From an uncultured virus (IMG/VR IMGVR_UViG_3300028591_000105) (lineage: Duplodnaviria > Heunggongvirae > Uroviricota > Caudoviricetes): DNA of 64,000 nt. Under the pieces are notes generated by a model, which saw nothing but the letters and a program-made list of their open reading frames with translations, did not search any database and was not told where the DNA came from. Made by a program: the position numbers and the translations under genes. Each line of letters begins with the position of its first letter. The stretch's first letter is position 1. Of this stretch, positions 154 through 63,700 are shown one piece after another. The stretch lies in the IMG/VR virus record IMGVR_UViG_3300028591_000105. One strand, 5' to 3'.

Positions 154-220
154 TATACTTCACGCCGGCTTACCAAAAATTACCATTCTTACCAAAAATT
201 GGTAGGCCGGCAGTAGTATA
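154..220. repeat. Palindromic intergenic element (GCCGGC-armed family)
   Basis: tatacttcacgccggcttacca ... tggtaggccggcagtagtata imperfect inverted arms. Confidence 0.7.
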
Positions 221-228
221 TTTATGCT

Positions 229-477
229 TCAAACTCTAAAAAAGTCAACGTACTTAGTAATTTTACTACCTAGTCCAGTATCCCTCTTTCTTATCTTATG
301 CTTCTTCAAATAAGTTCTATATCTTACTGAACCTAGGTACTGCTTATATCCCCTCTCAAAATCTATTGGACAGTAATCTATATAATCATGAAAAGCATCT
401 ACAATAATCTTCTGAGTATTACCATAACGATATGCTTCTATTTGCTTTGCCTTTTTCTTTTTAATTCTCTTGTTCAT
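229..477 (-). CDS. Hypothetical basic protein
   Basis: 82-aa ORF with AGGAGG RBS, overlaps upstream gene. Confidence 0.7.
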   Translation of the reverse strand: MNKRIKKKKAKQIEAYRYGNTQKIIVDAFHDYIDYCPIDFERGYKQYLGSVRYRTYLKKHKIRKRDTGLGSKITKYVDFFRV

Positions 478-865
478 AAAATCCTCCTTTTTTAATATTC
501 TTTAACGTATATTCAACATAGATAGTTTTTCTATCTATAACCTTATAATTATTCACTACAATAATTTTACTATTTATCATATGTTCAAGTATATATTCTG
601 GATAAAGATAAAGAGCCCCGTCAGGACTATCAATACACATTTCCGTTATAAACTCACAATGTATATAATTTTCATTTCTTCCTTCTTCATAATAAGGTAA
701 AGCAAGAAAGAAAAAATTATTTAATCCTAAAGGAAGAAAATCATCTATGAAACGATTGTTAGGAATTGCTGTTTTATCTTCATAAATTATTTCATAAGTT
801 TCTCTTAATCTATCTATTTCAGCCGATGAAATTCCTTCAAACTGATAATCATTAAATACTTTCAT
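461..865 (-). CDS. Hypothetical protein
   Basis: 134-aa ORF coupled to neighbours (TAATG overlap). Confidence 0.7.
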   Translation of the reverse strand: MKVFNDYQFEGISSAEIDRLRETYEIIYEDKTAIPNNRFIDDFLPLGLNNFFFLALPYYEEGRNENYIHCEFITEMCIDSPDGALYLYPEYILEHMINSKIIVVNNYKVIDRKTIYVEYTLKNIKKGGFYEQEN

Positions 866-1396
866 TAATACACTCCTTCTTCTGTAAAATGGCGCTTAAT
901 GCTGTCTAATGATACTGGTTGATAATTATGCCGCTCGACACACATACAAGCAGAGTTCTTACCCCAAGTTTTGTATAGTGGACTGTTGTGAATATGACCA
1001 TATGCTGAACAATACATTTGATTCATTACAAAAGGAAGCGGCTCATGGGATAGTACAAGATAGTCCATAATAATGATTGGATGGTCATAAACTTCCGCAA
1101 ATCCGCAGTCTCGATACCATTGATTTGACCTAGTATCATGATTGCCTTTTACTAGATATATTTTTCCATTCAGGTGTTCTACTATTTCAGTAACTTGCTC
1201 CTTACTTCCGAAACCAAAGTCGCCAAGATGATATACCTTGTCATCTTTCTTTACAGACTGATTCCAAAGTTGTATTATCTTCTCATTCATGCTATTAACA
1301 TCATTAAAAGGTCGATTACAATAGTCAATTATCTTCTCATGGCAGTTACCAGAAATGGGTATCTGCTATGAACCACGTATTAGATGGTGCTCCCAT
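865..1396 (-). CDS. Calcineurin-like metallophosphoesterase, interrupted by 7 extra nt (with TAA) at 1345-1351
   Basis: Motifs WFIADTHF / CHEKIIDYCNRPF, HLGD, KGNHD, LSHEP, YGHIH; first motif is in a different frame from the rest. Confidence 0.8.
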
Positions 1397-1405
1397 TTCT
1401 ATTCG

Positions 1406-1627
1406 TCACTCCTTTCTATTACCATATTCTCTTATCTTATTAATATCTCCTGCTGCCCTTGATGCGCCGGCGCAAGCTATTTGAGTATAGCGTGATTGCC
1501 ATTCTCCATAGGAGATTGAACCGTTTAGATATTCCCACATTAGCTTATTTATTTTGTCTAAACTCTTATAATGTTCTTTACCTGCTTCTTTAGTTAATTC
1601 TAAAACAAATTCTTGATATTTGTTCAT
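1406..1627 (-). CDS. Hypothetical protein
   Basis: 73-aa ORF, AAAGGAG RBS, sigmaA promoter upstream. Confidence 0.7.
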   Translation of the reverse strand: MNKYQEFVLELTKEAGKEHYKSLDKINKLMWEYLNGSISYGEWQSRYTQIACAGASRAAGDINKIREYGNRKE

Positions 1628-3074: not shown

Positions 3075-4157
3075 TCACCCTGTACGTTGATTATAACCAT
3101 ATTGATTTGACTTATAGAAGCCAATCCAATACTTCTCTTTCTCTGTCTATTCTTCTTTTGGACAAACTTCTACAATTTCCCAAGTATAATTTTCAAGTCC
3201 ATCTTCAAACATAGCATCATATAGCTAACCTTTAATTCTTTCAATACCACAGCCACGCTTTGCATGGGTACGCCAACGACTTAAAAAGTTAGTCGTCTTA
3301 CCAATATAAACTTTCTAATTATTTATATTAGTAATCTTATAAATACCACCTTTATCCTTATTCTCGCCAAGTACTCTTTTAAATAATTCTTCAAGTCTTG
3401 ATTTATAATATGTTTCATAAATAAGTTTAAGTAGTATCTCTGGCTTTGAAAAAGAAGTAGATAATGCTTTTAACTTACTAATATCCTACTTTTCAATTTC
3501 ACTTACTTTAATTCTATAAAAGTCTGCCTATTCTCTTTTTCTTTCATCTTCCTTAAAGCGAGCAATAATTTCATTTTGTCTAGCTTCATACTTCTCTATC
3601 TCTTCAGTCAATGCCGCCTTTCTCGAATTTATTTGCTCGCTCACGACGAAAAAATCATGAGATAATGCCTCTTTCTTTTCTTTATAGTCTTCACTTAACT
3701 TAGCTAATTCAGTATTAAGCCTATGCTATTCTTCCACTATTTCTTTTTCAAGCATAGCTTGTCTAGCTTGCGCCGCCGAAGCAACTTTTTCGTTGAGTTC
3801 TTTTTCATTCTACTCATATTTCCATTTGAGTTCATTCTCTCTTTTCTTATAACACTGTTCAATTGTTGCTTGCTATTCAGAATAAAATCTATTAAGATTT
3901 AAAACCGAATCTTCTATAGATTCTTTCTATCTATTATATTCTCTTTCAAGCTATTCTTTGCGCTCTTTGTGCCGGCGCTCAATATCTTCATTAAACTCTT
4001 TTTCAACAGCATTTTTCTTTTCGACTAAACCCTATATTGCTTTTGCCTACTCACGTTTAAACTATTGAGTAGGAAGCTTCTTTATACTAAGGCGGTCAAG
4101 TAAGAAAAATATTGCTGCGCCGGCGCAGAGTCCAATGAGAATTGCAATAATTACCAT
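3075..4157 (-). CDS. Membrane-anchored coiled-coil protein with C-terminal GIY-YIG nuclease domain
   Basis: MVIIAILIGLCAGAAIFFLL TM, long charged helical region, GIYKITNINNQKVYIG...GYN; many TAG=Gln. Confidence 0.75.
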
Positions 4158-4807
4158 TTCTCCTCATCTCCAAATTCATACTCTGCGCCGCAGTCACATA
4201 TACATAATCTACAGCAACCTAGTGGACCATTACCAATAAAGAACTTTAACTTATGGCCTTTGATATTACCTCCTTCTTCAAGAATATGAGTATAATACCA
4301 ATTCATAATTTCATTAGCTTTATCCATATCCATAGAACGGTCCTAATATCTACGTGCTTCAGATAAAGACGCTTGTAGCTCTTCTATCTTTTTATTCTTT
4401 TCTTCAAATATATCATCATCAGAGCGTGAGGCTTGCTTAGTAAGTTCTTCTGCTTGCTTTTCTAATGTCTTTTCCATTTCAGCAATATAATTAACAGTTC
4501 TCATTAATCCTTCTTTATTATCTGAAACATCATAGAACTTATTACGCCAAGGATGATAATGAGCATGACTGTAATGCAAATTACGTTTATCTTTCATATA
4601 TTCTGTAGCTTCTTTTAATAATTCCGCGCCATTTTTCTCATATGCTTGGCCGGCAAGGTATTCTTCTGCATAATCCATATAAGTTGTTATAGGGTCTGGC
4701 GAATTACGAAGCGCTTCGTTAAATTCGGGGTCAGCGGCGAGCGCGTCGTTTACTTGCTAAACTGTTGCATCACTCATATCTATTATTTTATCAAGTATAT
4801 CAGCCAT
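4151..4807 (-). CDS. Hypothetical protein (joins ORFs 4343-4678 and 4151-4333)
   Basis: Single frame through two TAGs, coupled to thyX stop. Confidence 0.7.
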
Positions 4808-5588
4808 TGTCTTCCTCCATATTATAAAGTGCTTGAATTAATTCTTCCTCAGATTGTGGGATATGTCCTTGTTTATGACATTTAAGAATAAGTTGATTCA
4901 TAAACTCAAGGTCTTTCTTCGCAGGCATATAACCACAAGAATGAGATTCATCACAGAAACCATAGTGTCTACACTTAGGCTTTAATATATTCTCTTCTTC
5001 TATTAAATATCTCCATTCATCTGAATATTTACTTAGGGCGGCAGCAATGTCAGTCATTAACTGACGGAACTCCCAATACGCACGACTACACATACGTACT
5101 TTTGCCATATCAATAAGCGCTCGTAAGTTAGTGCGGTATACTACTTTAGTACTCATACCAAGAGGGAGCAGCATTGCTGCATCTTCACGTTTTATTTTAT
5201 AATCCTTTTCCAAGCGCTGCGCCGCCGAAGCAATATTTTGCATAGTACCATTGTACAAAGTTGCAGCAGGTGACATTTCACCAAGCGCCGGCGTAATGTA
5301 ATCAAAATCATTGTAGTCAATGTAGCGAGTGGACGCCTGGAGCTTGCTCGGCATACCGGACTAGTGAGTATATAACTCTCGGATGACTCTAGCTGAATAG
5401 CCATCAAGAATTAGAAATACCTATGCATACTCTAATGTCTTGCCATGACCAGAACGAAGGCATTCAAGTCCTCGCTTATAGTTCTTAACAGAATCGGCTG
5501 TCTTTGCTGACCAACACTCGCCAGCAAATTCGCCTGCGAGCTTTAAAGGATTTCTTGTTGTTTCACTATGTACTATTACAGTTCCCAT
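4800..5588 (-). CDS. thyX: Flavin-dependent thymidylate synthase
   Basis: SGHGKTLEY, RELYTH..., QASTRY, NLRAL, RMCSRAYWEFR; two TAG=Gln. Confidence 0.9.
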
Positions 5589-5807: not shown

Positions 5808-6368
5808 TTAACCTCCTATTTTCTTTCTTTCTGCTATTATCATTGGCAAATCAGTAGTATTAATTGGTATAAGACTATGATAGCCAAGTGAACAATTAAG
5901 GACTCCATCTTTATATATGGTATCCATTGGATATTTCGACGCCGCCGTAGCGACGATAGTATAATTATCTATTTGTTCAAGGTCATATTTAATTCCACGC
6001 TTTGCCGGCGAGATTAGTACTGTATAGAACTCATTATTAAATGAACCTCGATAAATACCTGGCGCATTCCATACTTGACGAAAGATGCGTTTATAAGTGT
6101 CTTGTGAAAAATGAGTTTGCTCTCTTCCATCTATAATATCACAAGTTTGAGTAGGATTGAGTGGTGCAAGTAGTTGTTTCAATTCTTCTGCCGTTCCAGA
6201 TGTTATATCACCGAAGAAAAGAAAACAATCTTCAGGTGAAGTGCGGGCGGCGAGCATGTTGTTGATTATTGTAGAGTTATAGGTATCTACTGATATACTG
6301 AATTTGTCTGCAGACTTAGGGTTTGAGAAGTTTGGGTCTGCGACAAGAAATGTTTTGGGTTTGGTCAT
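5808..6368 (-). CDS. Degenerate metallophosphoesterase-like protein
   Basis: FLVADPNF, FFGDI and LNCS align with the family, but metal-binding His and GNHD residues are lost. Confidence 0.55.
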   Translation of the reverse strand: MTKPKTFLVADPNFSNPKSADKFSISVDTYNSTIINNMLAARTSPEDCFLFFGDITSGTAEELKQLLAPLNPTQTCDIIDGREQTHFSQDTYKRIFRQVWNAPGIYRGSFNNEFYTVLISPAKRGIKYDLEQIDNYTIVATAASKYPMDTIYKDGVLNCSLGYHSLIPINTTDLPMIIAERKKIGG

Positions 6369-7400: not shown

Positions 7401-7490
7401 AATTTTTTTCTTTAATATTATTATATCACACTTCAAAGTAAAAAGCAAGTTGTTGCAATTATCCTACTCCGTGCCGGCCTACCACTCTCC

Positions 7491-7580
7491 CTACACTTTG
7501 CGCCGCCACCCTAGTAAATTTTCTTAATGTGAAATTTTACTATATCGACTCTAAAAAATTGCTGCGCCGGCGCTAAGTAA
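7491..7580 (+). repeat. Dispersed ~80-bp element
   Basis: tacactttgcgccgccaccctag...aatgtgaaa...gctgcgccggcgctaagta; colinear with 17621-17709. Confidence 0.75.
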
Positions 7581-9056: not shown

Positions 9057-9130
9057 TGCCGCCCTAGAGTTATTGTGCATTTTCAACAAAAAATCTCACT
9101 AAAATTCTACGCGCCGGCGCAGAGTACTGA
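9057..9130 (+). repeat. Dispersed ~80-bp element
   Basis: gccgccctag...ttgtgcattttcaacaa...gcgccggcgcagagtactga; colinear with 9697-9788. Confidence 0.7.
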
Positions 9131-9231
9131 GTACAACAAATTGACACTTAGTACTACCTAGCTCCTAGCAACTTGACTTTTGCCCTATACTATGTTATAA
9201 TATATATACAAAATAAAAAGGAGGTCACCCT

Positions 9232-9662: not shown

Positions 9663-9696
9663 TATTACCCCTGAAGTACTCAGGGGTTTTCTTTTT

Positions 9697-9788
9697 TACA
9701 CTTCGCCGTCCTAGGGTTGTTGTACAATTTCAACAAAAGTTTCAAGTAAAATCTTGCTGCGCCGGCGCTAAGTACTGAAATTGACTAC
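9697..9788 (+). repeat. Dispersed ~80-bp element
   Basis: tacacttcgccgtcctag...ttgtacaatttcaacaa...gctgcgccggcgctaagtactga. Confidence 0.7.
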
Positions 9789-10769: not shown

Positions 10770-11039
10770 TCACTCCATTGACTCATAAATGTCACAAAGT
10801 GCCATTTGAGTATCTAAAATATCCTGTTTTAAGCCGGCTATTTCTTCTTCTAATGCGGTCTTATATTCAATTGTATCAGGATTAATTTTTTCATCTGTTT
10901 CCTCATATGTATAAGGACAAGGATTAATATCCACTGGTTCATCATATACTAAGCCAGTTTCAACTTGAAGTAGCTTAAAACCTTCATCAGAATAATGTTT
11001 AACTAAAGTATCATTATTCAAAAATTCTTGTAAAATCAT
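10770..11039 (-). CDS. Tail-module accessory protein (XkdW-like position)
   Basis: C-terminal coiled segment LKQDILDTQMALCDIYE directly upstream of XkdX-like gene. Confidence 0.6.
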   Translation of the reverse strand: MILQEFLNNDTLVKHYSDEGFKLLQVETGLVYDEPVDINPCPYTYEETDEKINPDTIEYKTALEEEIAGLKQDILDTQMALCDIYESME

Positions 11040-12179: not shown

Positions 12180-12185
12180 TAAAAT

Positions 12186-13899: not shown

Positions 13900-13903
13900 T
13901 TAA

Positions 13904-14596: not shown

Positions 14597-14597
14597 T

Positions 14598-17736: not shown

Positions 17737-18969
17737 TCAAATTTTTCCTTGTAATTCATCAAGATAGCCCGCTGCCTATGCAGTTTTACTACGTTCTATC
17801 TTGTTCAATCTTACTGTAGCAAAATAGGGAGCATATTCCTCAGAATCAGCTAACTTCAGCAATAACTTTAACCCGTTCTTGTCCTTAAACAAACTCGAAT
17901 CAGTCTGTTTAAGATCTCCATCTAGAAAAATACGAGAATTATCTCCGCAACGTGCAATAAGTAGTTTTATATGTTCATCCGTTAAGTTCTATGCCTCATT
18001 AACAATAATAATACTATTATCAAAACTTCTACCTCTTGCATATCCCATCGGTACTATCTCCAACTCCCCATTGTCTTCCATTCTCTGAATTTCATCTATT
18101 CCAACCAAATCCATTAGAGGTCCGATAGATCCAGCTACTTTATCTAGCTTCTCTCCGGGAAGTGCTCCTATATTAATTGTATTAGCAACAAAAGCATTAT
18201 TAGGAATATAAACTATCTTATTAATATTACCTTTTTCAAGCTCCTATAGCGCATAATTATTCAGAAGGTAACTCTTGCCTGTGCCCCACTAGCCGCCGGC
18301 ATAGATAATAGTAATATCAGGATTTTCCAAAGCATCAAATAAACACTGCTACTCTGCATTACCTGCTCTAGGATAAACTTTTCTAATCCATTTATTCCTA
18401 ATTTCTCTTACTTTTATCTCCTACAATTCGCCGCCGCGCCAAACTAAAATATTTAGAATAAGTCCATTATAATCTCTAATAATAAAATACTCATTCTCTT
18501 TCAAATTAAATTGAACTGGCGGCCGGCGTGAAGTAAGAACTTCTTCTAATTCTGCACTATACCCATTTTCATCAAGTTCAATCGTCCAACTCTATACTCC
18601 ACTATAGTCTTCACTGCCGCCATATCCATGTGTTTGAAGTCCGGCGATACGAGCTTTAACTTTCAAATATATATCATTAGTAATTAAAGTACCAGCATAG
18701 GATTTTGTTAGTTCAAGTAGTTTATCATCAACTGGTATCTTCTCTTCTTCCTAGCTATCGTCAAACTATAGTCTCTCAATATTTCTTGAAATAACTATTG
18801 CCGCTCGCCGTGACTAAAAAGCAACTTCAGGATTCTAATTTCTTTTTAATCCATCAAGTTCCTTTAGTACATCAGTAGCAATAATTAAATTATCTTCTTG
18901 CTATAGTATTTGAGGATATGACAACAATATATTCGTGTCAACAATTTTAAATTTACTAATACTTCTCAC
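17737..18969 (-). CDS. phoH: PIN-PhoH (PhoH2-type) protein
   Basis: VDTNIL, KELDGLK (PIN); GQWGTGKS Walker A, GALPG, RGRSF, NEAQNL, GDLKQTD with TAG=Gln. Confidence 0.88.
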
Positions 18970-36187: not shown

Positions 36188-36270
36188 TTACACTTTACGC
36201 CGCCACCCATATCTAGTATAAATAATTAAACTCATACTAGATTTGGTAGGTGCGCCGGCGTGAAGTGTAG
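36188..36270. repeat. Palindromic dispersed element
   Basis: tacactttacgccgccacc...atctagtat...atactagat...ggtgcgccggcgtgaagtgta. Confidence 0.7.
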
Positions 36271-46289: not shown

Positions 46290-47168
46290 TCAAACTTCCT
46301 ACTATACATAAGTTCCGTTTTCATACTTATATATTCCATTAGTAGGTATATCTACATATAACTTATTTTCTTCGGGTACAATAGGATTTGAATAAGTTCC
46401 ATTTGCATAAGATATGTAAAAAGTTCCATTATTGTAGTATCCTGGTTCAGCGCCGGCAGCAATTTTTGCATAAGCATTTGAAGAGATATGAGTACGAATT
46501 TCTGTTAGACCTTGATAATATTGTTTTTCTAATTCTGTCATATTAAAAACTGCTGCTCTATTGGCTACAGTAGTACCAACTAAAAATTCAACATCTATAG
46601 TCTCATTATTCCTTTCATCATTAAAATTAATTCTACTTCCTTGTTTATCAAAAGCTAACAAAACAGTTCTTGTTGTTATACTATTGTTATTTATACTGTC
46701 AAAAATATATACAATACCTATATTTTGTGGTTTTTTACTTAGTAATACTGAAACAATATTAGCATTATACGAAGTAGCAACTATATTTCCTTCACTATAG
46801 ACATATTCTATTGGACCACTGCCATAATCCTCACGTACTTGAAAATATATATTAGTATTATCTACGCTATAAAAGTCCCAATAACAATAGCGATGCTAAT
46901 TATCAATATAAAGGTCTTCAGGTTTAACTCTTTCTAAAAAACTCTATATAGACTCCTAAGAATTTAAATCCACCTAAAAAACTTTATACCCACCTGCAAT
47001 AAAATCTCCGCCAAGGTTTCCATATATATTCTAACTTCCAGCATGAAGTTCAATCTTCTCCATATTTTCTCTATTCACAATAAAATCCATATTCTCACTT
47101 GCATACAAATTTGCTTTCTCAATCAAATTTCCACTATAATCATTGCCCTTATACATAATCGAGTTCAT
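46290..47168 (-). CDS. Putative tail-associated protein
   Basis: GGAGGT RBS, TAGA-N19-ACTT upstream; C-terminal KLYVDIPTNGIYKY..GTYVQ motif typical of tail modules. Confidence 0.65.
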
Positions 47169-47307: not shown

Positions 47308-48993
47308 ATGGCAAAATACGCAAACTTTGATGCTTTCAAAAAAGCATATCTTGGAAAAGCAGTAGACTATGACAACACTGCAGGAGTTCAGTGTGTAGAC
47401 CTTGTTGACCAGTATCTCAAAGATTGTTTTGATATTACTGGTATTTGGGTAACTGGCGCAAGAGACCTCTATAATAAATTCAACTCCTATACTGCTTTAA
47501 CTAAAAAGTTCAAAAGAATTGCAAATACTCGTGACCTTGTCATCAAAAAGGGTGATATAATCGTATGGGGCGGTGGCTCCTGGGGTCATACTGGTATTGG
47601 TACTGGTAATGGTAATATCGACTGGTTCGAATCTCTTGAAGAAAATACTCTTGGAAGACATGAACCAACTCAATTAGTAAAACACTACTTTAATGGTACT
47701 GGCGGCAATGATGGTTGCAATCCAGTTCTTGGTGTTCTTCGTCCTATTACTGAATCTAAGAAAGAAGATACAAAGAAAGAAGATTCTAAGAAAGAAGATT
47801 TTAAGAAAAAGGAAACTTCTACTAAAACTAAAACCATTACAAAAATGGTTATTGACATCTCTGAGTTTCAGCCTTCTATTAACTATGCTAAACTTGCCTC
47901 TGAAGTTGATGGTGTAATTGTCCGCATTGGATACCGTGGTTATGGTAGTGCTGGTACATTAGTAAAGGATAATAAGTTTGATACTCATATGAATGGTATC
48001 AAGAAACATAAAATCCCCTATGGATTCTACTTCTTCTCTCAGGCAAAGAATGAAGCAGAAGGAAAGGCAGAAGCTGATTATGCTTATAAAATTATTAAAG
48101 ATTATGACCCTACCTATCCAGTATATTTTGATAGTGAAGGTTCTACAGAGCCAAATGGAAATGGTAGAGCAGATAAGATAAGTAAATCTGACCGCACTGC
48201 CGCCGCCCTAAGGTTCTGTAAAGAAATAGTAAAGAAAGGTCTTACTGCCGGCGTTTATGCATCCACTAGTTGGTACAACAATAAACTTGATGTATCTAAA
48301 CTTCAAAAATATTCTATTTGGGTAGCTGACTATGGTATAAATAATGGTAGAGCCAATACTAAGCCTTCTATTACTGGAATGAATGCATGGCAGTTTACTT
48401 CTAAGTATAAACTAAGTGCTATTTCTACAGGAGTAGATATGAGTTATTTCTATGAAACTATTCCAAGTGGAGGACTTCATCCTATTGACCCTACGCCTAA
48501 GAAAGAAATTAAGTATACAACTTACTACGCAAATGATAAGACTGGCGTAAACTATCGCAAAACTCCTAATGGTATTCTTGTTGGTACTTATAAATATGGT
48601 GCTGCAGTAACAGTAGTTAATGGAAGTGCAACTGCTAAGGCAGGATACACCTGGCTTAAAACAAAGAGTGGATATTGGGTAGCTAAAGAACTTCTTAGTA
48701 AGACTAAGCCCTCTACTGTATCTATTGCTAAATATACTAAAGGTAAATCCTATACCCTTCAAGTAGATTTAAAAGTACGCACTGGTGCAGGTACCTCTTA
48801 TGCTCAAAAGAATAGAAAAGACCTTTCTGCTTCTGATAAGAAAAATAGTTATAATCAGACAAAAGCAGTTTTAAAGAAGGGGACAAAAATTACTGCGACT
48901 GAAGTTAAAGCTATTGATAGCAAAAATGTATGGATTAAATGTTCTGCTGGATGGCTTAATGCTATCAATAATGGAACTATTTACATAAAGTAA
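47308..48993 (+). CDS. Modular endolysin: CHAP + GH25 muramidase + SH3-like domains
   Basis: QCVDL...WGHTG (CHAP); IDISEFQ, YFFS, FDSE, WVADY, WQFTS, VDM (GH25); two SH3b-like C-terminal units. Confidence 0.92.
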   Translation: MAKYANFDAFKKAYLGKAVDYDNTAGVQCVDLVDQYLKDCFDITGIWVTGARDLYNKFNSYTALTKKFKRIANTRDLVIKKGDIIVWGGGSWGHTGIGTGNGNIDWFESLEENTLGRHEPTQLVKHYFNGTGGNDGCNPVLGVLRPITESKKEDTKKEDSKKEDFKKKETSTKTKTITKMVIDISEFQPSINYAKLASEVDGVIVRIGYRGYGSAGTLVKDNKFDTHMNGIKKHKIPYGFYFFSQAKNEAEGKAEADYAYKIIKDYDPTYPVYFDSEGSTEPNGNGRADKISKSDRTAAALRFCKEIVKKGLTAGVYASTSWYNNKLDVSKLQKYSIWVADYGINNGRANTKPSITGMNAWQFTSKYKLSAISTGVDMSYFYETIPSGGLHPIDPTPKKEIKYTTYYANDKTGVNYRKTPNGILVGTYKYGAAVTVVNGSATAKAGYTWLKTKSGYWVAKELLSKTKPSTVSIAKYTKGKSYTLQVDLKVRTGAGTSYAQKNRKDLSASDKKNSYNQTKAVLKKGTKITATEVKAIDSKNVWIKCSAGWLNAINNGTIYIK

Positions 48994-48994
48994 G

Positions 48995-49822
48995 ATGCCC
49001 TTAACTCCAATAAGAAAAGAGTTTCTTAATTTACCTATTAAACAATATATTATTACAGCGCCGTCATCTTAGGCGGCGCCGTTTAATATATTTATTTATT
49101 AGCTTCCAGATTTACCTTAGTAGTTTAATACAAGTTTGGCTGAATACTATGTGAGATGTTAGAAATTTAATAGATTAAAATAGTTCAAAGCAAATTACTA
49201 TGTGGATAACTTATCCATATGGGAAACTTCGCCGCCCTAGGGTAAAATAGTAAGGGTTGCTATTTGTGGTACAAAGGAAAGAACTTATAAGAAAACAGTT
49301 AAATTGATTACTAATTTAGCTCAGTATTTGACTATACCTCAAGAGTAGATAAAATTAAGATTTTCTAATGAGAACTTTTCTTTATTACTAAGCGCCGCGA
49401 TGGAAAAAATTAGACTCCCACATAAGGAAATTTCACATTAGGATTTTTTCCAAGAGCCGGCGGCGTACGACAAGGAAGTACAACTAACTTATAAAATGTA
49501 GGTAGATAATAATTGGACAGAAACTTCTATAGGTAAACCCTTACATGGTCTTAAATTTTCTATCACTCAAGGCAAATTTTTATTCCGAATATGGTCTGGC
49601 GGCACTTGGTATCCTTGGACAGACTCAAAAGTCGAAAATCTTTCATCTATTGAAGGTTTCCAATTTGAATTACAAGATTTGCCTAATTACAACTTATTCT
49701 TTAGAGTTCATTTTCTAAATGAAAACTGGACAAAATGGAAAGACAAATATATCTCTATACCTTATCAAAAAACTATTGATAGTATAGAGCTTAAATTAAA
49801 AAGGAGGGATAATGATGATTGA
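48995..49822 (+). CDS. TAG-rich lysis-cassette protein: degenerate amidase-like N-terminus + ChW-like Trp repeats
   Basis: 275-aa frame with 10 TAG; ANYYVDNLSIWE; WYPW, FRVH...WTKW, IEGFQ/IDSIEL; coupled to both neighbours. Confidence 0.65.
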
Positions 49823-53308: not shown

Positions 53309-54004
53309 ATGGCAAGACTTTCTGATTCAACTATTCAGCAAATTCCAAAACTTTATGCGGAATTAGGAACCTATAAAGCAGTGGCAGAATAGTTAAAAAT
53401 TAGTCCTACTACTGTAAGTAAATATATGAAAAAATTTAAAGGAAATATACCCAGTGCCGGCCAAACAAACATTACAAAAGAGTTGGAGCAAGAAATTAAT
53501 GATTACTTTGCTTTTTCATTGAATTTAAGTGAAACAGCAAGAAAATTTAATATTAGTCCAACAACTGTTAAAAGACATTTAACAGATGAAAATTTAGTTG
53601 CTGCGGCGGCGTAGAGTGAGGACAAAGATAATTTAGTAGTATATATTGAAAAATTATTTAATTAGCCAATAAGTAAATGGAATATTATTCAAATTTCAAA
53701 ATTTAAAAATAATGGAATGAACTATAAGGCACAATTGTTAACTTTAAAATATTGGTTTGAAGTACTTGGCAATACTACTGAAAAATCCAATAATAGTATT
53801 GGAATTATTCCATATTAGATAGACAATGCACGTACTTATTATATGAATAAAGTTCGTCAGCATAAATTAAACGAAGAAAAACTTAAAAAACAAAAATCAA
53901 ATGAGCACATTATAATTACTCATACACCAGGAGATTACTTTGTGCCGCCAAACCATGAGAAAAATCTAATAAATCTTGATGATTTGAGGGATATAAATGA
54001 TTGA
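53309..54004 (+). CDS. Tandem HTH protein upstream of helicase
   Basis: YKAVAEQLKISPTTVSKY and LSETARKFNISPTTVKRH. Confidence 0.7.
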
Positions 54005-55718
54005 AATTCCACGTCAGACAATACTTCAATTATTAGGAAGTTTAATGAAAGAACCAGATTTATTTGTTCAAACAGATAAATATAAACTCAGTCCAAAAGA
54101 TTTTACTCGATTATTAGATAGATATGTCTTTTCCACTATTTATAATCTTTACTCAAATGGTGCTAAACAAATTCATATTATTGATATAGATACTCAAATT
54201 CAAACAAATCCTGCAGCAAAGGCTACTTATGAACAAGAAAATGGATTACGTTTTATACAAGATTGTGAAGAGTTTAGTGACCCATAGAATTTTGATTATT
54301 ATTATAATCAATTTCGTAAAATAAATTTATTACGAAGCCTATAGAAACAAGGAACAGATATTAGCTAGTTTTATAGCGATAATCCTTTAGATAAAGATTA
54401 TCTTCAAATAAATTAGAAATTTGAAACATTAACTTGTAAAGACATATTGGAATCTTTAAAAGGAGACATTGCTACCCTTGAAAATGAATATGCTGTAGAT
54501 ACAACTATAGAAGAAATGAATGCATTTCAAGGTATTAGAGAGTTGATAGAAACCCTTAAAATCAAACCTGAAACAGGCTCACCTATGCAAGGTGATTATT
54601 TTAATACAGTTTCCCGAGGTGCTAGATTAGGAAAACTATATCTAAGATCTGCATCGTCTGGAGTTGGTAAAACCCGCACAATGGTTGGGGATAGTTGTAA
54701 AATGGCTTTTCCTATTAGGTATGATAGAAAGCAAGGTAAATGGGTAAGCACAGGCTCTTGTGAACGAGTTGTTTACATTGCAACAGAGCAAGACGTTGCG
54801 GAAATTCAAACTATGATATTAGCTTATTTAACAGATATTAATGAAGAAGCATTTTTGTATGGTAGATTTGATTTAGTTGATATGCAACTTATTACAAAAG
54901 CAATTGATATTATGGAAAGATTTCAAAATAATCTTTGGTTAGTTAGAGTGTCTGACCCTAGCGCCGGCGTAGTAAAAAATGTAATCAGAAAATATCATAA
55001 ACAAAAACAAGTTAATTATGTTTTTTATGATTATATCTTTAGCTCTCCAGCGATGCTAGCTGAATACCGTGATTTGGGGTTAAGAGAGGATGTGGTACTC
55101 AGACTCTTCATCACGGAGTTGAAGAACCTCGCCGTTGAATTGAATATCTTTATACTTACATCTACACAAACAAGTAATGATGATGGCGGCGGTGGATTTA
55201 AAGATTATCATAATGTACGTGGCTCAAAAGCATTAGTAGATTTGTGTGACTTAGCTTGTATTATGTCACGCCCCACATCGGAAGAAATTGAGGCGCTTAG
55301 AACCGAAAATCCCGACTTAAATTACTCTCCTAATATTGTAATAGATGTCTATAAAAATAGAAGAGGAAGATGGACTCAAATACGAATTTGGGGTTGTAAT
55401 GATTTAGGTACTTGTAGACGAGAAGAAGTTTTCGTTACAGATATAAAAAATGTTCCAATCGAAGATTTTACCTTAATAGATTTTCATATAGATAATGCTA
55501 ATATAAATCTAAATGAGCTTGAAGAATATTATAATGATGGAGTAATACCATCTCAAAATCAAGAGCTATTAGTAGATACTTTTGTAGAAATAGTTCATGA
55601 TAGTCAACAAGCACATGCGGAAAGAGAAGATGATTTTTTCATTACAGATGCTTTTGATAATCAAATTGATACTTATAAAAGAGCAAAGAAAAGGAGTTTA
55701 AGTAGTTACTTTGATTGA
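53997..55718 (+). CDS. dnaB: Replicative DnaB-like helicase
   Basis: SASSGVGKT, YDYI, LKNLAVELN, STQ, KNRRG; joined via TAG=Gln. Confidence 0.85.
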
Positions 55719-56775
55719 TAAGGATAAATTAGTTCAAAGTTTAACATCTGAGGATATCATTGAAATAGCTAAAGACCTAGGTTGTGATGACTATGTAGAA
55801 AAAGAAAGAGAGCTTATTTTTCCTACTTTTTGTCATCACGCCAATGCCGCAGATGGTTCACATAAACTTTATTACTATAAAAAAGACCATAGATTCTGTT
55901 GCTATACTTGTTGCGGCACTTTTGACATAATCGGTTTGTTGTGCCGGCGCTATGAAACTCTTGGTATAGAATATGACTTCTATAAAGATGTTTTGCTTAA
56001 ACTATCGGAAAAGGCGAATATTAGCGTAATAAAGACAATGCCGTCCTTTATCGATCCTTATGAAAACATTGGTGATAGATATAAACCAAAAGTAGTAGAT
56101 ATTGTAATGCCACCTTTAGACCCTGCTATTCTTAATTCATTTATTTTTTATCCTACACCAGAATGGTTAAATGATGGAATAGGAAAAGAAGCAATGAAAC
56201 TTTACGGTATAAAATATTCAATTAATGAAAATAAAATTATTATACCTCATTATAATAATAAAGGCGATTTAGTTGGTATTCGTGGAAGGGCATTAAATAA
56301 AGAAGAATAGGACAATAAATACATGCCGATTAGTATTAATGGAAATATCTATAGCCATCCATTGGGATATAATCTTTATGGATTGAATATGGTATCAGGT
56401 AATATTAAACGTTTAGGTATGGCAATTATAGTTGAAGCAGAAAAATCCGTACTCTAGTATGATACTATGTTTGGTCATCATGATAATATTTGTGTAGCAA
56501 CTTGCGGCAGTTCATTACATGATTATCAAATTAATCTATTACTTCATGCCGGCGCAAGGAAAATTCTTCTTGCTTATGATAAAGAAGGTCAGACGCCAGA
56601 AGAGGCAGAAAAGTATTATAAAAAATTAAATCATATTTGCAGTGCGTATAAAAATAAAGTTCAAATAGGTTATATTCAAGATATGGAGAATTTACTTGAT
56701 TTAAAAGATTCTCCGACAGATAAAGGAAAAGAAGTATTCTTAAAATTATATTGGAAAAATACAATTTGGATATAA
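55711..56775 (+). CDS. dnaG: DNA primase (Zn finger + TOPRIM)
   Basis: CHH...CYTCC, IIIPH...GIRGR, LYGL, VEAEKS, AYDKE, KDSP. Confidence 0.85.
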
Positions 56776-56787: not shown

Positions 56788-59669
56788 TTGCAAGTTAAGC
56801 AAAGAACAACAAAAAATATTACAAGTAATTTTTTAATGGAATTACTTAAAGACAGAGGAATATTACCATAGTCAGAAGGAGACAAATAGAAATTCCTTCA
56901 TCCATTACATAGTAATGAACATTCTCCAGAGTTATTAGACCATATGGAAGAAGCATGGAATATGCTGAAAAAACATCTCATGCGCGGGAGCAAGATATAT
57001 CTTGTAGTTGACCCAGACGTTGATGGATACACTAGTTCCAGTCTGGTTTATCTCTATCTAACGGATGTACTTGCAAAACAAGGATATGAATTTAAAATAG
57101 AATATCATATACCAGAAGGCAAAGAACATGGATTATAGACTCTAATGCCTATTCTTACAGCAGATAAAATTGCAGACCTTATTATATGTCCTGATAGCAG
57201 TTCTAACGATTATGAAGAACATTAGATTCTATCTGAAATGGGATATGATATACTAGTACTGGATTAATTGAAGAATGATGGTTCAGTTTAAATCTCTCTA
57301 ATTGACGGGGACTCCCTTAGGGCTTTAACTACTAAACGATAATAGCAATATTATTGTGGCAATGCGGAAAGGCAAAGGTATAGTAAAAAAGTTAAAGATT
57401 GGGTAATCCGCAGCGAAGAATCTTCCATATTTTACAAGGAAGAATCACGTTCAGAGACTATATGGGAGACAGTGGAAGCACTGAAGAGATAGTCCAATCT
57501 CTTCATATAATTTAAACATGGAGGATTGATACAATGGATAAAATTAACGCAAGAAAAATTGAGGAAATGTATTCATTAAGACGACCAATAAAATGGATCC
57601 AACAAGAAACGGGAATGTCTAAAAGTACTATTGAAAAATATTTAAAAGACAATAATTTATGGACTGGACATAAATATATGCTAAAATATTTTGATGAATT
57701 TTTCTTTGACAGTATTGACACCGAAGAAAAAGCATATTGGTTAGGATTTATATATGCAGACGGATATTTAGCAAAGCCTTCAACTATAGGTATAGAATTA
57801 AAAGCAACAGATAAGGAACATTTAGAAAAATATCGGAAATCTCTTAAAGCAGAACATGAAGTTAAAGTATATCATAAAAATAGTACTTTTGGTCCACAAG
57901 ATAACTGTAGAATTGCTTTTGCTTCTAAACATATGTTTAATATATTACTAAATTATTTCGGTTCTCATAAAAAAACCTTTGAGGGGCATTTCCCAATAAT
58001 TGAAGATGAAAAATTAATTCCTCATTTAATTAGAGGCTTCTTTGATGGAGATGGTAGTTTATCTGGTTTACCACAAGAAGAAGAACATCTTTTTAGACCA
58101 TCTCTAAGTTTTATAGGTACAAAAGAGACATTAAAATATATTGAAAAAATCAGTGGTTTTGATTGGTCTTGGTCCCAAAGACATCCTGAAAAAAATACCA
58201 ACAATTATTAGATTAATTGTGGTCGCGTTAATGATTGTATTACTTTTTTAAATTATATGTATAAAGACGCAACTATTTTCTTAGATAGAAAATATGAAAG
58301 ATATTTATTTTTATTAGAAAATAGGCAACGTCTTTCAGCGAAAGCAAGAGTATAAAAGCACCATGAAGCAGAAAGATATAGTGACCATGCTGTTGTAATT
58401 AATAATCAGTTATCTAAGAATTATCCTAATAAAGCACTTAGTGGTGTTGGAGTTGTATATAAATTCTTAGAACATATTGATTATGAAACTCAAAAAGAAA
58501 ATCTTAAAGAAGAAGAAGGATTTATAGAACCTTACTCATATAACTATTTAGACTTAGTTGCTCTCGGAGAGATAAGCGACGTCATGGATATGACAACTCT
58601 AGAGAACCGTTGGATAGTTAGTGCCGGCCTAAGTAATATTAACAATAAATTTTTCCAGACCTTAATAGATAAATAGTCATTCTTTTTAAAACTTGATGAA
58701 AAGCCGCTTGACCAAATAGGAGTTGCTTTTTATATAACACCATTAATCAACGCGCTTATACGAGTAGGTTCACCTTTAGAAAAAGAACGTTTATTCTAGG
58801 CATTTATTACACCAAATGTAAAAGTTCCTTCTACAAAGCGCGGCGAAAAAGGAATGGAAGAAACTATTGCAACACAAGCCGCAAGAAATTGTGTTAATGC
58901 TAAAAATCGCTAGACAAGAGAGCGCGATAAAGCGGCGGAATTATTGGATATACAAATTCTTAATAATGATTTAGACTCAAATAAAATACTTATACTCGAT
59001 GCCGGCGACCTGGATGTTTCTAATAATCTGACAGGATTGTGCGCAATGGGTGTGGCGGCGAAGTATAAGAAACCAGTATTACTAGGAAGAGTAACACCAG
59101 ATGGGAAAGAAATGAAGGGGTCTATTCGGAACAAAGATGGCTCTCCACTTAAAGACTTAAAATAGTTCCTAACAGATTCAGGGCTAATGTCATACGTCGA
59201 GGGGCACGCTAATGCAGCCGGTTGGGGTTGTCCTGTATCAAATATAAGCAAACTAATTGAATATGCAAATCGAGAACTCGCAGATGTAGATTTTAATGAA
59301 GGCTCATATGATGTTGATTTTATTTGCAACTCAAAAGATAGCTATATTAATGATTTGATATTTGATTTAGATAAAGGTACCCAATTCTGGGGTTAGTCCA
59401 ATCCAGAACCTATTATTGCAATTCCTAATATTTCTTTGCCGGCCGCTGCAATAAGTATAATTGGAAATAATAAAGATACAATAAGATTTGAGCTTAATGG
59501 AATAACTTATGTTAAGTTTAAATGTAAAGACCTAATAGAATCATTACCTTCTAAAGGTGAAGTTTATATTAGTATTGTAGGAAGAGGAAACATTAATAGA
59601 TGGGCCGGCAAAGAAAAACCACAAATATTAATTGATGATATTGAAATAAAAAGTTTGGAGGGATTCTGA
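56788..59669 (+). CDS. recJ: RecJ-like DHH exonuclease, spliced (exons 56788-57264 and 58359-59669)
   Basis: DPDVDG, HGL, LVLD|HHE across intron, LSGVGV, ALGEISD, GSIR, GHANAAG. Confidence 0.9.
57265..58358 (+). mobile_element. Group I intron in recJ
   Basis: P AAUUGACGGG, Q AAUCCGCAGC, R GUUCAGAGACUA, S AAGAGAUAGUCC; 5' exon ends U; intron ends G. Confidence 0.92.
57534..58355 (+). CDS. Intron-encoded double-motif LAGLIDADG homing endonuclease
   Basis: AYWLGFIYADG and IRGFFDGDG; reads through TAG at 58209 to LDRKY. Confidence 0.88.
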
Positions 59670-60157: not shown

Positions 60158-60171
60158 AGGAGGAATTTACT

Positions 60172-60357
60172 ATGGGAGAAATTTTAAAGAGAACAGAAGA
60201 GTGGAGAGTTAATGATGAAGCAGAAGCTAAAGCATTAATTGAGCAGGCTAAGAAAAAAGAACTCGATGATGGATATGAATTAGTTTCATACTAGTCAACA
60301 CATAAAGTAAAGAAAGATGATGACTTTTATATAGTAAAACTAGTTAAACAGTGGTAA
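60172..60357 (+). CDS. Hypothetical protein
   Basis: AGGAGG RBS; one TAG=Gln. Confidence 0.6.
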
Positions 60358-60358
60358 T

Positions 60359-60673
60359 ATGAAATATATAATTAAATCTCGTGGTTATGGAAAGACATTT
60401 GACATTGTGCGATTAGCTTTATCAAATAATGGAATTATAATTGTTTCTAATTGGGGTGCTAAATATTATATCAAATGTCATTTCTATAAAAGATACAAAA
60501 TTTCATTTAATGAGATAGATGTTCTTACAGTAGAAGAATATTTAAAAAATTATTTTCAAGAAGAATATAAAAATCGTCCTATATATGTTGATGAAGCAGA
60601 TAAATGTTTTACAATTTTATTTGAAAACCTATTTAAGGCAGAATTAAACACAATTGCATTAACACTTAGCTAA
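60359..60673 (+). CDS. Small P-loop-like protein
   Basis: RGYGKT and IYVDE motifs in 104 aa. Confidence 0.6.
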   Translation: MKYIIKSRGYGKTFDIVRLALSNNGIIIVSNWGAKYYIKCHFYKRYKISFNEIDVLTVEEYLKNYFQEEYKNRPIYVDEADKCFTILFENLFKAELNTIALTLS

Positions 60674-60770
60674 AGTCAAGAGAAATCTTGACTTTTTCTT
60701 TGTTTTATGATATAATAATTATAGTAAAAGAAATTTTTACTATAATTAATTAATTATAAGGAGGGATTTT

Positions 60771-63700
60771 ATGGACTTATCTAAGATTGCCAAGATGGAT
60801 GACCACGCCCATTCCGAATACAGCAACGAGCGTTTAATCGACAGTATTAACTACATACCGGACATGATGAAGGTAGCCTATTCACTTGGTTATGCAGGTA
60901 TTACACTGACAGACCATGAAACACTTAGCGGCCATGTAGAGTGGCTATAGACTGAAAAGAAGTTAAAAGAAAAAGGAGAAATACCTCAAGACTTTAAATG
61001 CGGTCTTGGTAATGAGATTTATCTTGTAGATGATAGACATAATATAGAACGTTATTGGCATTATATTCTAATTGCCAAGAATAACCAAGGACATCGAGCA
61101 TTAAGAGAACTCAGTTCAATTGCTTGGTACAATGGATTTTCAAGTCGCGGTATGATGCGAGTGCCAACTGAGAAGCGAGAGCTTGAAGAGATAGTAGCTA
61201 AGTACCCAAATTCATTGATAGCTACTAATGCCTGCATAGGCGGGTTTATCGGAGGACGCGTACTAGCCCTCGTAAAAGCAGAAGCGGATAACAATGAAGA
61301 AGAAATATATAGGTTAAAGATTGATATTAATGATTTTATTAACTGGAATAAAAAGCTATTCGGCAATGATTTTTATTTTGAAATAGCCGCCGGTCAATCA
61401 AAAGACCAAATAGCTTTTAATAAAAGGGTAAAATCAATTGCAGATTCCTATGGACTAAAAATGATAATAGGTTCAGACGCTCATTATCTTACAGCAGATT
61501 ACCGAGCTGCTCATAAGGGATACCTTAACTCCAAAGAAGGAGATAGGGAAGTAGATGAATTTTATTATGATGCACACTTTATGACGAATGAGGAAGCCTA
61601 TAGTAATTTAAAGCTCGCTAATTATACAGAAGAAGAATTTATTCAAATGTGTAATAACTCAATGGAAATTTATGATAAAATTGAAGGATATAATCTTGAA
61701 CATAAGCCTATTATTCCTGAAGTTGAAGTAATGGATTATCCTAAAGCAAACATAGATTTTCAAAAAACAAAAGACTATCCTACTCTTGCTAAATTATTAA
61801 TTAGTAATAATATTCAAGAAAGATATTGGGTAAATCAATGTTTAGATGAATTAAAAACTCGAGATTTATTTATCCCCAAATACTTAGAAAGACTGGAAAC
61901 AGAAGCTAGAGTAATAGATATCATAGGAGAAAAACTTGAAGATTGTCTCTTTAAATACTTCAATACTTTTCAACATTATATTAACCTCTTTTGGGAATGT
62001 GGTTCAATAGTAGGTCCTGGAAGAGGTAGCTCTGTATGTTTCTTATCTAATTATCTTTTAGGAATAACTTAGCTTGACCCGATAGAATGGGAGCTTCCCT
62101 ATTGGAGATTCTTGAATGAAGAACGTGTTGAGCTACCCGATATTGATATAGACCTAGCTCCATCAAAAAGACCTGAAATATTTAAACGTATTAGAGAAGA
62201 GCGTGGTGAATTAAATGTGCTTCAAGTATGTACTTTTGGCACAGAAGGTACAAGAAGTGCAATTGCTGCTGCCGGCAGAGGTTATCGAAGTGAAAAGTAT
62301 CCAGATGGATTAGAGGTAGAAATAACTCAATATTTATCGAGTTTAGTACCAATGGAACGTGGCTTTCTTTGGTCAATAGATGAAGTTATTAATGGTAATG
62401 TCGAAAAAGATCGTAAACCTGTACAAGCCTTTATAGATGAAGTTTCTAAATATCCTGGTTTATTAGAGCTGATTCAATCTATTGAAGGACTTATTTGCCG
62501 CCGAGGCATTCACGCGAGTGGAGTAATACTTTATAATAATAGTCCTTTTGAAACCAATGCTATCATGCGCAGTCCTGATGGCACTCTCACAACATAGTTC
62601 GATCTTCATCAGTCTGAGTGGGCTGGCGACGTAAAATATGACTATTTAGTTACTGAAATATGTGATAAGCTAACCTCTTGTATTGAGCTGCTCCAGCGCG
62701 AGGGATTAATAGATCCGAATAAAAAACTGAGAGAGGTTTATAATGAATATCTTCATCCGGCAGTATTGAATTTGGACGATAGTAAATTATGGGACGCATT
62801 GGCTGAAGGCTCTGTCCTTGATGTATTCCAGTTCAGTACGGGAGTCGGATTGGCAACGGCAAAGCAAGTTAAACCTCGTAATCCTACTGAATTAACTTCC
62901 GCAAATGCTCTAATGCGTCTTATGGGAGAAAAAGGGAAGGAGCGGCCGCTTGATAGATATTGCCGTATTAAGCAAGATATAAATAGATGGTACGATGAAG
63001 TAAGAGCAATAGGTTTAAGTGAAGAAGAAATAAAAGTTCTTGAACCTTATTATGTACCTAATTACGGAGTGCCGGCTAGCCAAGAAGACCTTATGATGGT
63101 TTGTCTTGACCCAAAACTAGCTCATTTTACACTTAAAGAGGCCAATGCCGCGAGAAAAACCGTGGCTAAAAAACATATGGGCGAAATACCTGCATTACAC
63201 GATAAGTTTGTTAATCAATGTCCAAATACTAGACTTGGTGAGTACGTATGGGAAACTACCATGGGACCTTAGATGGGTTATGCATTTGCTCGACCTCACG
63301 CCCTTGCATACAGCTTCGTAGGTATCCAAACTCTCTATCTTGCCACCAACTTTCCACCCATCTTCTGGAATTGTGCTTGCTTAATAGTAAGCGCCGGCGG
63401 AACAGATTTGCTTAATATGGATTTTGATGATGAAGAGACTGATGAAAAGAAAAAGAATAAAAATGTCGATTATGGTAAAATTAGTAAAGCAATAGGAGAA
63501 TCAAAAGAAAAGGGAATTAAAATTGCTCCACCAAATATAAATCATTCTGACTTAATATTTAAACCAGACCTTTATAATAATCAAATCTTATATGGACTTA
63601 AAGGGATATCTCGTATAGGAACAGATTTAGTTTATGAAATATTTAAACATCGTCCATATACATCTATTTCTGACTTTTGCAAAAAGGTAAAAGTTAATAA

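Follow-up and report, generated by a model that had tools for sequence, protein, structure and literature searches.

A single G/C-only palindrome, GCCGGC, is grossly over-represented in a 64-kb stretch of DNA (31.9% G+C; hereafter the window) from the uncultured virus IMGVR_UViG_3300028591_000105. This over-representation was confirmed, and the word proved to be one member of a wider vocabulary of islands composed only of G and C, which an earlier note made from the sequence alone (the original prediction) had missed. The excess acts on the DNA and not on translation, and comparisons between genomes indicate that it is upheld through gain and loss of copies, individual sites not being conserved. 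The explanation we lean towards, at slightly less than even chances, is a biased substitution process combined with lineage-specific filtering of palindromes, with GCCGGC as the favourite word of this lineage within a family-wide G/C-island vocabulary.

The window contains exactly 44 copies of GCCGGC, in line with the roughly 44 counted by eye, with the first starting at 164 and the last at 63393. The expected numbers were 1.04, 1.34, 2.22 and 15.1 under Markov models of order 0, 1, 2 and 3, respectively. The first two agree with the original expectation of about one copy, and the G+C content of about 30% estimated there was also close to the measured value. In the proposed k-mer enrichment analysis, GCCGGC had the highest z-score among all 4096 hexamers, at order 1 and order 3 alike. 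Forty-four of the 60 CCGG tetramers of the window fall within GCCGGC, and the near-variants CGCCGC and GCGGCG occur 26 and 16 times. The extended 10-mer GCGCCGGCGC occurs six times, at 1464, 4117, 7564, 9111, 9759 and 30401; five of these positions had been given correctly, and the one read as 9769 was wrong by 10. Phages are expected to purge short palindromes, and the other six-base palindromes of the window are mostly depleted (observed/expected: AAGCTT 3/36, CTTAAG 1/28, AGATCT 2/28, TGATCA 1/21). The phage thus purges nearly all short palindromes yet multiplies one of them about thirty-fold. Three AT-rich control phages, T4 (168.9 kb), Staphylococcus phage K (148.3 kb) and an SPbeta-like phage (127.7 kb), contain two, zero and one copies, so we rejected the excess as a general property of AT-rich phages. 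The mean spacing was 1470 bp, or about one copy per 1.4 kb, as in the related phage G001. Regular spacing was rejected for the window, where the coefficient of variation was 0.98 (0.96 under the null); over 0-155 kb of G001 it was 0.85, with a marginal p = 0.045.

The copies lie in both coding (38) and intergenic (6) DNA, as the original prediction had stated. Within genes, 23 read GCC-GGC (frame 0, Ala-Gly), 10 read xxG-CCG-GCx (frame 2, Pro-Ala) and five read xGC-CGG-Cxx (frame 1, Arg). The enrichment persisted in the codon-shuffling analysis, the kind of control that had been named as able to refute it: 300 synonymous shuffles that kept the amino acids and the per-gene codon pools gave 3.9±1.8 copies (maximum 10), with 37 observed in coding DNA. 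GCC accounts for 125 of 1016 Ala codons and GGC for 202 of 1086 Gly codons, yet GCCGGC spells 23 of the 72 Ala-Gly pairs, where about 1.6 would be expected. The word also takes 10 of the 49 CCG and five of the 14 CGG codons, which are the rarest Pro and Arg codons of the window. Cytosines at positions 3 and 6 of Ala-Gly pairs were coupled (odds ratio 13, p = 1e-5), and G preceded CCG-GCN in nine of nine cases, while Gly-Ala (GGC-GCC) showed no coupling between positions (odds ratio about 1). Clustering of Gly, Ala, Arg and Pro in the proteins was 0.99 of expectation, indicating no general dipeptide effect. Because the shuffles, the position coupling and the frames leave the excess standing, codon and dipeptide usage do not refute the finding.

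A translational preference for the codons or the codon pair of Ala-Gly would account for the 23 of 44 copies that are in-frame GCC-GGC, and the same-codon pairs GGC-GGC and GCG-GCG are favoured too. However, it leaves aside the 15 copies in other frames, with their rare Pro and Arg codons, and the six intergenic ones. The effect is also missing from the homing-endonuclease and accessory genes of the same genome, and relatives with the same overall codon bias differ in it. On these grounds (reading frames, copies between genes, mobile genes) we rejected a translational or codon-pair origin, which we regard as extremely improbable. Insertion of a 6-bp unit was rejected as well, as only 1-2 of about 20 sites per relative fell in alignment gaps.

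The family context came from a search with the window polymerase, which retrieved 18 IMG/VR loci at 63-74% amino-acid identity; loci L002 and L011 are the same phage. Four whole relative contigs were compared: G001 (179.8 kb, with terminal repeats), G002 (154.8 kb), G006 (163.5 kb) and G005 (167.2 kb), with 93% identity between G002 and G006. Like the window, G001, G002 and G006 are TAG-recoded, and G005 uses the standard code. Among GenBank phages, the polymerase gene gave only 92-bp matches, to Staphylococcus SPbeta-like phages. The RecJ-like protein found three loci, at only 35-64% identity, when metagenome contigs were searched for close relatives. Genome contigs scanned for the host with the endolysin and with an alignment of four leucine-rich-repeat (LRR) paralogues gave no relative. 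Seven public sequencing runs contain the window or part of it, all from ruminant-gut or metagenome samples (sheep, bovine and goat gut). One run contained 99% of the sampled window words and may be where the window came from; the six others contained 7-12%. Contigs from four of these runs differed from the window at many letters, mostly by transitions among the differences listed.

The wider vocabulary became apparent from G/C-only runs of at least 7 nt. The observed and expected numbers were 94 and 18 in the window, 249 and 91 in G001, 158 and 43 in G002, 157 and 46 in G006, and 143 and 39 in G005, a 2.3-5.2-fold excess in the phage family. The controls showed none (T4 51 and 74, phage K 11 and 14, SPbeta-like 10 and 12). 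Of 21 related loci, 17 were enriched 2.3-fold or more; among the other four, two are short and two are the most distant of the set. Runs of 3-5 nt were slightly depleted. The long runs occur at stretches of two or three consecutive codons for Ala, Gly, Pro or Arg, and also between genes (12 of the 94 in the window, by our own reading of the run list, with the same words). They draw on few words, namely GCCGCC/GGCGGC, CGCCGC/GCGGCG and GCCGGC, and words of the GCCGCC type were 10-25-fold enriched in every relative. The G+C content of third codon positions was 0.33-0.43 between G/C dinucleotides versus 0.11-0.24 elsewhere, in all four genomes examined. In the window, the all-G/C spelling was used for 35% of Ala-Ala, 31% of Gly-Gly, 33% of Ala-Gly and 4% of Gly-Ala pairs. 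As the first three fractions are alike, frame-0 GCCGGC is about as frequent as predicted from Ala-Ala and Gly-Gly. Among the ways to write Ala-Gly, or G|CCG|GCx for Pro-Ala, with G and C only, GCCGGC is the sole one that avoids GGG and CCC.

These observations correspond to the first of two layers in the explanation we favour. A context-dependent substitution bias acting across the phage family would place G or C at a free position between G/C-rich neighbours, and adjacent Ala, Gly, Pro and Arg codons as well as intergenic DNA would turn all-G/C. The resulting islands, 7-13 nt long, would be built from the triplets GCC, GGC and GCG. The family-wide excess itself is directly observed, and a substitution bias is its presumed source; polymerase bias, repair bias and biased gene conversion are candidate agents.

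The favoured word varied among the relatives, being GCCGGC, GCCGCGGC or GGCGGCAC. GCCGGC occurred 117 times in G001 (6.6 expected), 49 times in G002 (3.4), 42 times in G006 (3.6) and 13 times in G005 (2.9). Locus L002 had 20 copies in 23 kb, and loci L003, L004, L006, L007 and L016 had 0-1. The proposed test of whether relatives share the motif came out positive for some of them and negative for these five loci. GCCGGC and CCGCGG were nearly mutually exclusive across the related loci. G005 preferred GGCGCC (20), CCGCGG (16) and GCCGCGGC (12), and the last had 18 copies in G002 and 17 in G006. The latter two genomes also favoured an asymmetric word, GCGGCAC (often GGCGGCAC), with 95 copies in G002 (L037-L044) and 81 in G006 (L049-L057) where about two were expected, and 12-20 in the other genomes. 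In G002 it was found in sense, antisense and intergenic positions with a strand bias of 65:30, and its orientation tracked gene direction without a flip between the genome halves.

The asymmetry of GCGGCAC and its strand bias recall Chi. In AT-rich Firmicutes the Chi sequence is rich in G and C and occurs in strong excess, and a Chi-like site could protect the phage against host AddAB or RecBCD nuclease. The enrichment of Chi published for lambdoid phages (PMC3784561, PMC12315714) resembles the present case in that a short G/C-rich word is over-represented in a phage genome. However, Chi itself is asymmetric and dependent on orientation, whereas GCCGGC is palindromic and shares its enrichment with many other G/C words. 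The orientation of GCGGCAC, moreover, follows gene direction and not genome halves. We consider a Chi-like role very unlikely.

The palindromes used by each lineage matched the tetramer cores that it tolerates. G001 tolerates CCGG (2.4x) and not GGCC (0.1x) or CGCG (0.2x), and it uses GCCGGC (117) and GCCCGGGC (30); G005 tolerates GCGC (1.6x) and CGCG (1.4x) and not GGCC (0.4x). The palindromic tetramers CCGG, GGCC and CGCG were depleted when flanked by A or T (W), whereas non-palindromic ones were not. For CCGG with zero, one and two of the G...C flanks, the observed/expected ratios were 0.22, 0.99 and 32.8 in the window, 0.15, 0.71 and 14.4 in G002, and 0.59, 0.84 and 4.5 in G005. As an observation on a control, phage K (L061-L068) has three Ala-Ala pairs with 75 expected (from crude calls of open reading frames, ORFs), no GGCC with 88 expected and no CGCG with 14 expected, a striking case in which the avoidance of words shapes the proteins.

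The second layer of the favoured explanation concerns these cores. A lineage-specific filter or drive would act on palindromic cores so that each lineage retains some G/C palindromes; in the window lineage only GCCGGC would be retained and CCGG without the G...C flanks removed, possibly by way of a flank-dependent protection of CCGG. The pattern is observed, and its cause may be host restriction-modification or methylation-linked repair. We place this presumed agent in the host because neither a cytosine methylase nor Vsr was matched in the complete relatives. The C5 methyltransferase family PF00145 was absent from all five relatives' records (three of them at least 97% complete), Vsr (PF03852) gave nothing above cut-off in five records (four at least 97% complete), and the HhH-GPD glycosylase family PF00730 had no match in five. 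PF01555 gave nothing above cut-off in the relatives' records searched, and comparison of the 91 window ORFs with PHROG and Pfam gave no methylase family. A methylation-maintained motif, for which the original prediction had suggested a search for a C5 methyltransferase, thus found no enzyme in the places searched. A Dam-type adenine methylase (PF02086) was matched in G001 and G007 only and was dismissed as a cause, since GCCGGC contains no adenine.

The graded flank series fits the signature of a ratchet acting on outer positions, but it is also what cooperative lengthening of G/C runs would produce. In the ratchet that Elhai proposed for the highly iterated palindromes (HIPs) of cyanobacteria, or in very-short-patch repair, NCCGGN would drift to GCCGGC: a cytosine methylase would mark sites of the CCGG type, and mutations to G-mC flanks would then be favoured, either by T:G repair or through a nick directed by the methyl group. 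The variation of the words by lineage and the density near one copy per kb are in line with this, and three alternate HIPs named in PMC4390886 are words enriched in this phage family. Against it stand the missing PF00145 and Vsr matches and the behaviour of the T-variants GCTGGC/GCCAGC, which T:G repair should deplete: they number 12 versus 8.3 expected in the window, and 17 versus 30.8 in G001, only a mild depletion. Host enzymes, furthermore, could act only during the infection cycle, and Elhai's mechanism is itself hypothetical. A ratchet of this kind seems quite unlikely to us. More speculative, and improbable in our estimate, is a word-writing system of the phages or their hosts, which would place a mark on cytosines in G-C contexts and steadily convert near-misses by repair or nuclease action directed to that mark. 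The G...C-flanked words GCCGGC, GCCGCGGC and GGCGGCAC would be its products, set by the enzyme of each lineage. If so, the islands would serve as an inherited mark of self and would in addition protect restriction cores embedded in them, such as CCGG, and a HIP-generating mechanism would exist in viruses, where it would be open to study in a small genome.

Individual sites turned over quickly. G002 and G006 align over 82% of their length at 93.1% identity, with mostly transitions between them, and 26 of 47 GCCGGC sites were retained; the corresponding figures were 70% for hexamers as a whole and 49% for those made only of G and C. At fourfold-degenerate sites, A or T was identical in 85% of cases between G/C neighbours and in 92% elsewhere. 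Differences from A or T to G or C affected 12.5% of the fourfold sites between G/C neighbours and 5.9% of the other A or T sites, while sites with G or C differed at 30-36% irrespective of context. Between the window and its G001 orthologues (about 49% amino-acid identity, at which the alignment of sites is uncertain), two of 21 aligned sites were GCCGGC and four kept the amino acids. The effect also differed between classes of genes. The density of GCCGGC was 0.81 per kb in core genes and 0.37 per kb in accessory genes, and the free position was G or C in 138 of 306 and 35 of 133 cases, respectively (p = 2e-4), in 1 of 12 in four homing-endonuclease genes, and in none in the LRR genes. The four tandem BspA-type LRR paralogues (12214-15617, 57-60% identical) contain neither GCCGGC nor a G/C-only run of at least 7 nt and sit in a 7.5-kb motif-free gap. 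Sites that come and go quickly at near-random positions do not look like conserved functional sites, and a biased DNA process appears to fit them better.

These data bear on the possibility that GCCGGC is a functional recognition site, under weak selection for copy number genome-wide and read by a phage or host protein for mismatch-repair strand discrimination, replication, packaging or compaction, or as a mark that spares self DNA from a nuclease. The original prediction had proposed a binding site for a packaging, nucleoid or recombination protein, which sits poorly with the random spacing and the low sharing of sites: retention of orthologous sites did not rise above the neutral background (26 of 47 versus 49% between G002 and G006, and two of 21 in G001). 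Ala-Gly is all-G/C no more often than Ala-Ala or Gly-Gly, and five loci have 0-1 copies. On the other side, the hexamer acts as a unit in the Ala-Gly coupling and in the nine CCG-GCN cases after G, its density of about one copy per 1.4 kb is alike in the window and in G001, and the asymmetric GGCGGCAC stands out in another lineage. We consider such a site unlikely.

Several points that favour selection weigh at the same time against substitution bias with palindrome filtering. GCCGGC is the commonest all-G/C codon pair (21 of 67 Ala-Gly pairs in the window, 57 of 192 in G001), slightly above GGCGGC, and this lead could reflect a positive force specific to the word. Fourfold sites within GCCGGC were identical between G002 and G006 in 58 of 76 cases, or 76%, versus 1365 of 2035, or 67%, at other G/C third positions (64-70%; Fisher p = 0.105), and those inside GCGGCAC were kept at 84% (n = 118). 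Weak selection on the words is therefore possible; the differences come from a comparison of two genomes and are unpolarised. At no fewer than seven aligned sites the relatives are concordant but the window has another amino acid (e.g., Tyr-Gly to Ala-Gly, Lys-Arg-Arg to Cys-Arg-Arg), and these window-derived residues suggest a strong push. Host restriction at CCGG should cut GCCGGC too, so that the filter needs the putative flank-dependent protection. The gene sets, finally, are our own crude ORF calls with TAG read as Gln.

The sites in the window are as follows; each is a copy of GCCGGC unless the 10-mer is named.
164..169, intergenic; on the minus strand, GTGAAGTATAAT comes next
206..211, intergenic
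1464..1473, 10-mer GCGCCGGCGC in ORF 1406-1627 (minus), Cys-Ala-Gly-Ala
3971..3976, ORF 3075-4157 (minus), frame 1, Arg-Arg-His
4117..4126, 10-mer GCGCCGGCGC with conserved flanks, in a terminator-like hairpin 23 nt past the stop of ORF 4151-4807 (minus); also readable as Cys-Ala-Gly-Ala
4649..4654, Ala-Gly
5287..5292, thymidylate-synthase-like gene, frame 2, Pro-Ala
6004..6009, Pro-Ala
7473..7478, Ala-Gly in the doubtful ORF 7191-7496 (minus)
7564..7573, 10-mer, intergenic, directly downstream (minus strand) of a strong terminator-like hairpin, 7610-7585
9111..9120, 10-mer, intergenic, with promoter-like sites pointing away on either side, 9045-9017 (minus) and 9173-9201 (plus)
9759..9768, 10-mer, intergenic, past a terminator-like site 9667-9687 (plus) and 13 nt ahead of a promoter-like site 9781-9808 (plus)
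10833..10838, Ala-Gly; the last before the 7.5-kb copy-free gap 10839-18294 (LRR paralogues, fibre-like genes)
18295..18300, PhoH-like gene, Ala-Gly
18522..18527, PhoH-like gene, frame 1, Arg-Arg-Pro; left flank is that of the extended element
19325..19330, Sak4-like gene, Ala-Gly
22159..22168, two overlapping copies, GCCGGCCGGC, topoisomerase II gene, Pro-Ala-Gly
22222..22227, topoisomerase II gene, Ala-Gly, within a 13-nt G/C-only run
25347..25352, Pro-Ala
26625..26630, topoisomerase II large subunit, Pro-Ala
28578..28583, pyridine-nucleotide disulphide oxidoreductase gene, Ala-Gly
30401..30410, 10-mer with conserved flanks, inside ORF 30172-30738 (minus), Cys-Ala-Gly-Ala
33893..33898, frame 1, Arg-Arg-Gln
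34068..34073, Ala-Gly
36254..36259, in GCGCCGGCG, intergenic, 14 nt past the ligase stop (minus strand); flank consensus present
38082..38087, Ala-Gly
38485..38490, Pro-Ala
40388..40393, 1268-aa ORF, Pro-Ala
44841..44846, 990-aa ORF, frame 1, Gly-Arg-His
46452..46457, Ala-Gly
48247..48252, endolysin, Ala-Gly
49456..49461, Pro-Ala
53456..53461, helix-turn-helix protein, Ala-Gly
54963..54968, DnaB-like helicase, Ala-Gly; relatives Ala-Ser, Ser-Ser, Ser-Ser
55943..55948, primase, frame 1, Cys-Arg-Arg; relatives Lys-Arg-Arg, Lys-Arg-Arg, Glu-Arg-Arg
56548..56553, primase, Ala-Gly; the sole aligned site that is GCCGGC in both G001 and G002
58623..58628, RecJ-like gene, Ala-Gly; relatives Tyr-Gly
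59001..59006, RecJ-like gene, Ala-Gly; relatives Ala-Asp
59438..59443, RecJ-like gene, Pro-Ala; also GCCGGC in G001
59604..59609, RecJ-like gene, Ala-Gly; relatives Gly-Gly
62271..62276, DNA polymerase III alpha, Ala-Gly
63071..63076, DNA polymerase III alpha, Pro-Ala
63393..63398, DNA polymerase III alpha, Ala-Gly

About eight of the copies form a separate class, each within a longer conserved palindromic element. In the alignment, eight copies share their flanks, with the minus-strand consensus TACTYWGCGCCGGCGCAGCAA followed by T-rich sequence. The 10-mers at 7564, 9111 and 9759 are intergenic and lie beside terminator-like hairpins or promoter-like sites, the latter from a promoter scan that as a whole did not exceed its shuffles (65 hits in the window, 55±7 in shuffles). 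The small ORFs over these intergenic 10-mers look spurious, so we treated the elements as non-coding. The other three 10-mers, at 1464, 4117 and 30401, read Cys-Ala-Gly-Ala inside ORFs. Judging from their positions at the boundaries of small transcription units, the three intergenic elements probably act as a hairpin or an operator. They recall the promoter-early stem-loop (PeSL) junction elements of T4-type phages in lying, as extended GCGCCGGCGC elements, between terminator-like and promoter-like sites of small genes. Unlike PeSL, only a minority of the 44 copies of GCCGGC are of this kind, and three of the six 10-mers are inside ORFs. In G001, the region 155.5-175 kb (L026-L027) contains an analogous set, all 30 of its GCCCGGGC palindromes, about 0.5-0.7 kb apart and mostly intergenic, after which come TTGTGCAA and a TATAAT-like sequence; GCCGGC is almost absent there. 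This set looks like an early-gene array of terminator/promoter junctions.

The PHROG and Pfam matches showed that the window is the replication and nucleotide-metabolism part of a large phage, bearing out the phage identity given in the original prediction. The matched genes included DNA polymerase III alpha, a DnaB-like helicase, primase, a RecJ-like nuclease, a split topoisomerase II, NrdD, ligase, PhoH, Sak4, an endolysin, the four LRR paralogues and several HNH and GIY-YIG homing endonucleases. Stop-to-stop frames of at least 150 aa covered 41% of the window under table 11 and 81% with TAG readthrough. TAG codons of the window stood opposite Gln in 27 of 97 alignments to the standard-code relative (background 3%), and TAG is read as an amino acid throughout. 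A search of the window for tRNA genes found none, hence no suppressor tRNA within it.

Some further features of the gene arrangement were noted. The gene for the small subunit of topoisomerase II is in two pieces, ORFs 24950-25453 and 21853-23718, separated by a GIY-YIG homing-endonuclease gene (23808-24773). The RecJ-like gene seems interrupted in a similar manner, with a DHH N-terminal ORF (56788-57267), an endonuclease (57534-58355, phrog_4645) and a C-terminal part (58584-59669) that covers profile positions 216-560. Two adjoining huge ORFs of 1268 and 990 aa (39204-45979) have no PHROG or Pfam match, and their N-terminal parts look similar by eye. A family-2 glycosyltransferase gene (11199-12179) adjoins the LRR block on the strand opposite to its neighbours.

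Taken together, the question moves from what binds GCCGGC to which process writes the G/C islands and what filters them. Most of the palindromes in the window conform to the avoidance of palindromes and restriction sites described for phages (e.g., PMC6286503), since most six-base palindromes and W-flanked CCGG, GGCC and CGCG are depleted; GCCGGC, with a 33-fold excess, is the opposite. The literature searched for iterated G/C palindromes in phages gave no description of such a case. The closest described phenomenon is that of the cyanobacterial HIPs, which comprise HIP1 (GCGATCGC) and the alternate words rCCGGy/GCCGGC, GCsGC and GGCGCC (Elhai 2015, PMC4390886), and for which that paper put forward a methyl-directed repair ratchet. 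The label HIP1-like in the original prediction was apt for the statistics (about 30-fold excess, about one copy per 1.45 kb, a DNA-level effect, variation among lineages), and the methylation and binding mechanisms offered with it were not supported. The phage differs from the systems described by Elhai in that the genome is not cellular, that no cognate methylase was found in the complete relatives, nor any cytosine methyltransferase in the five relatives' records or the 91 window ORFs, and that GCCGGC is embedded in a broader excess of G/C runs, with fast turnover of sites and with the asymmetric GGCGGCAC playing the same part in one lineage. We therefore assign no membership in an enzyme-defined system. 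As with HIPs, a short G/C-bounded palindrome shows a more than 10-fold excess (44 copies versus 1.3 expected), occurs about once per kb both within and between genes, and varies between lineages. The same three alternate words recur in this phage family, which ties the phage case to the unexplained words of cyanobacteria. Phages of 150-180 kb with 93%-identical relatives in public ruminant-gut data offer a small system in which a HIP-like drive can be set against selection.

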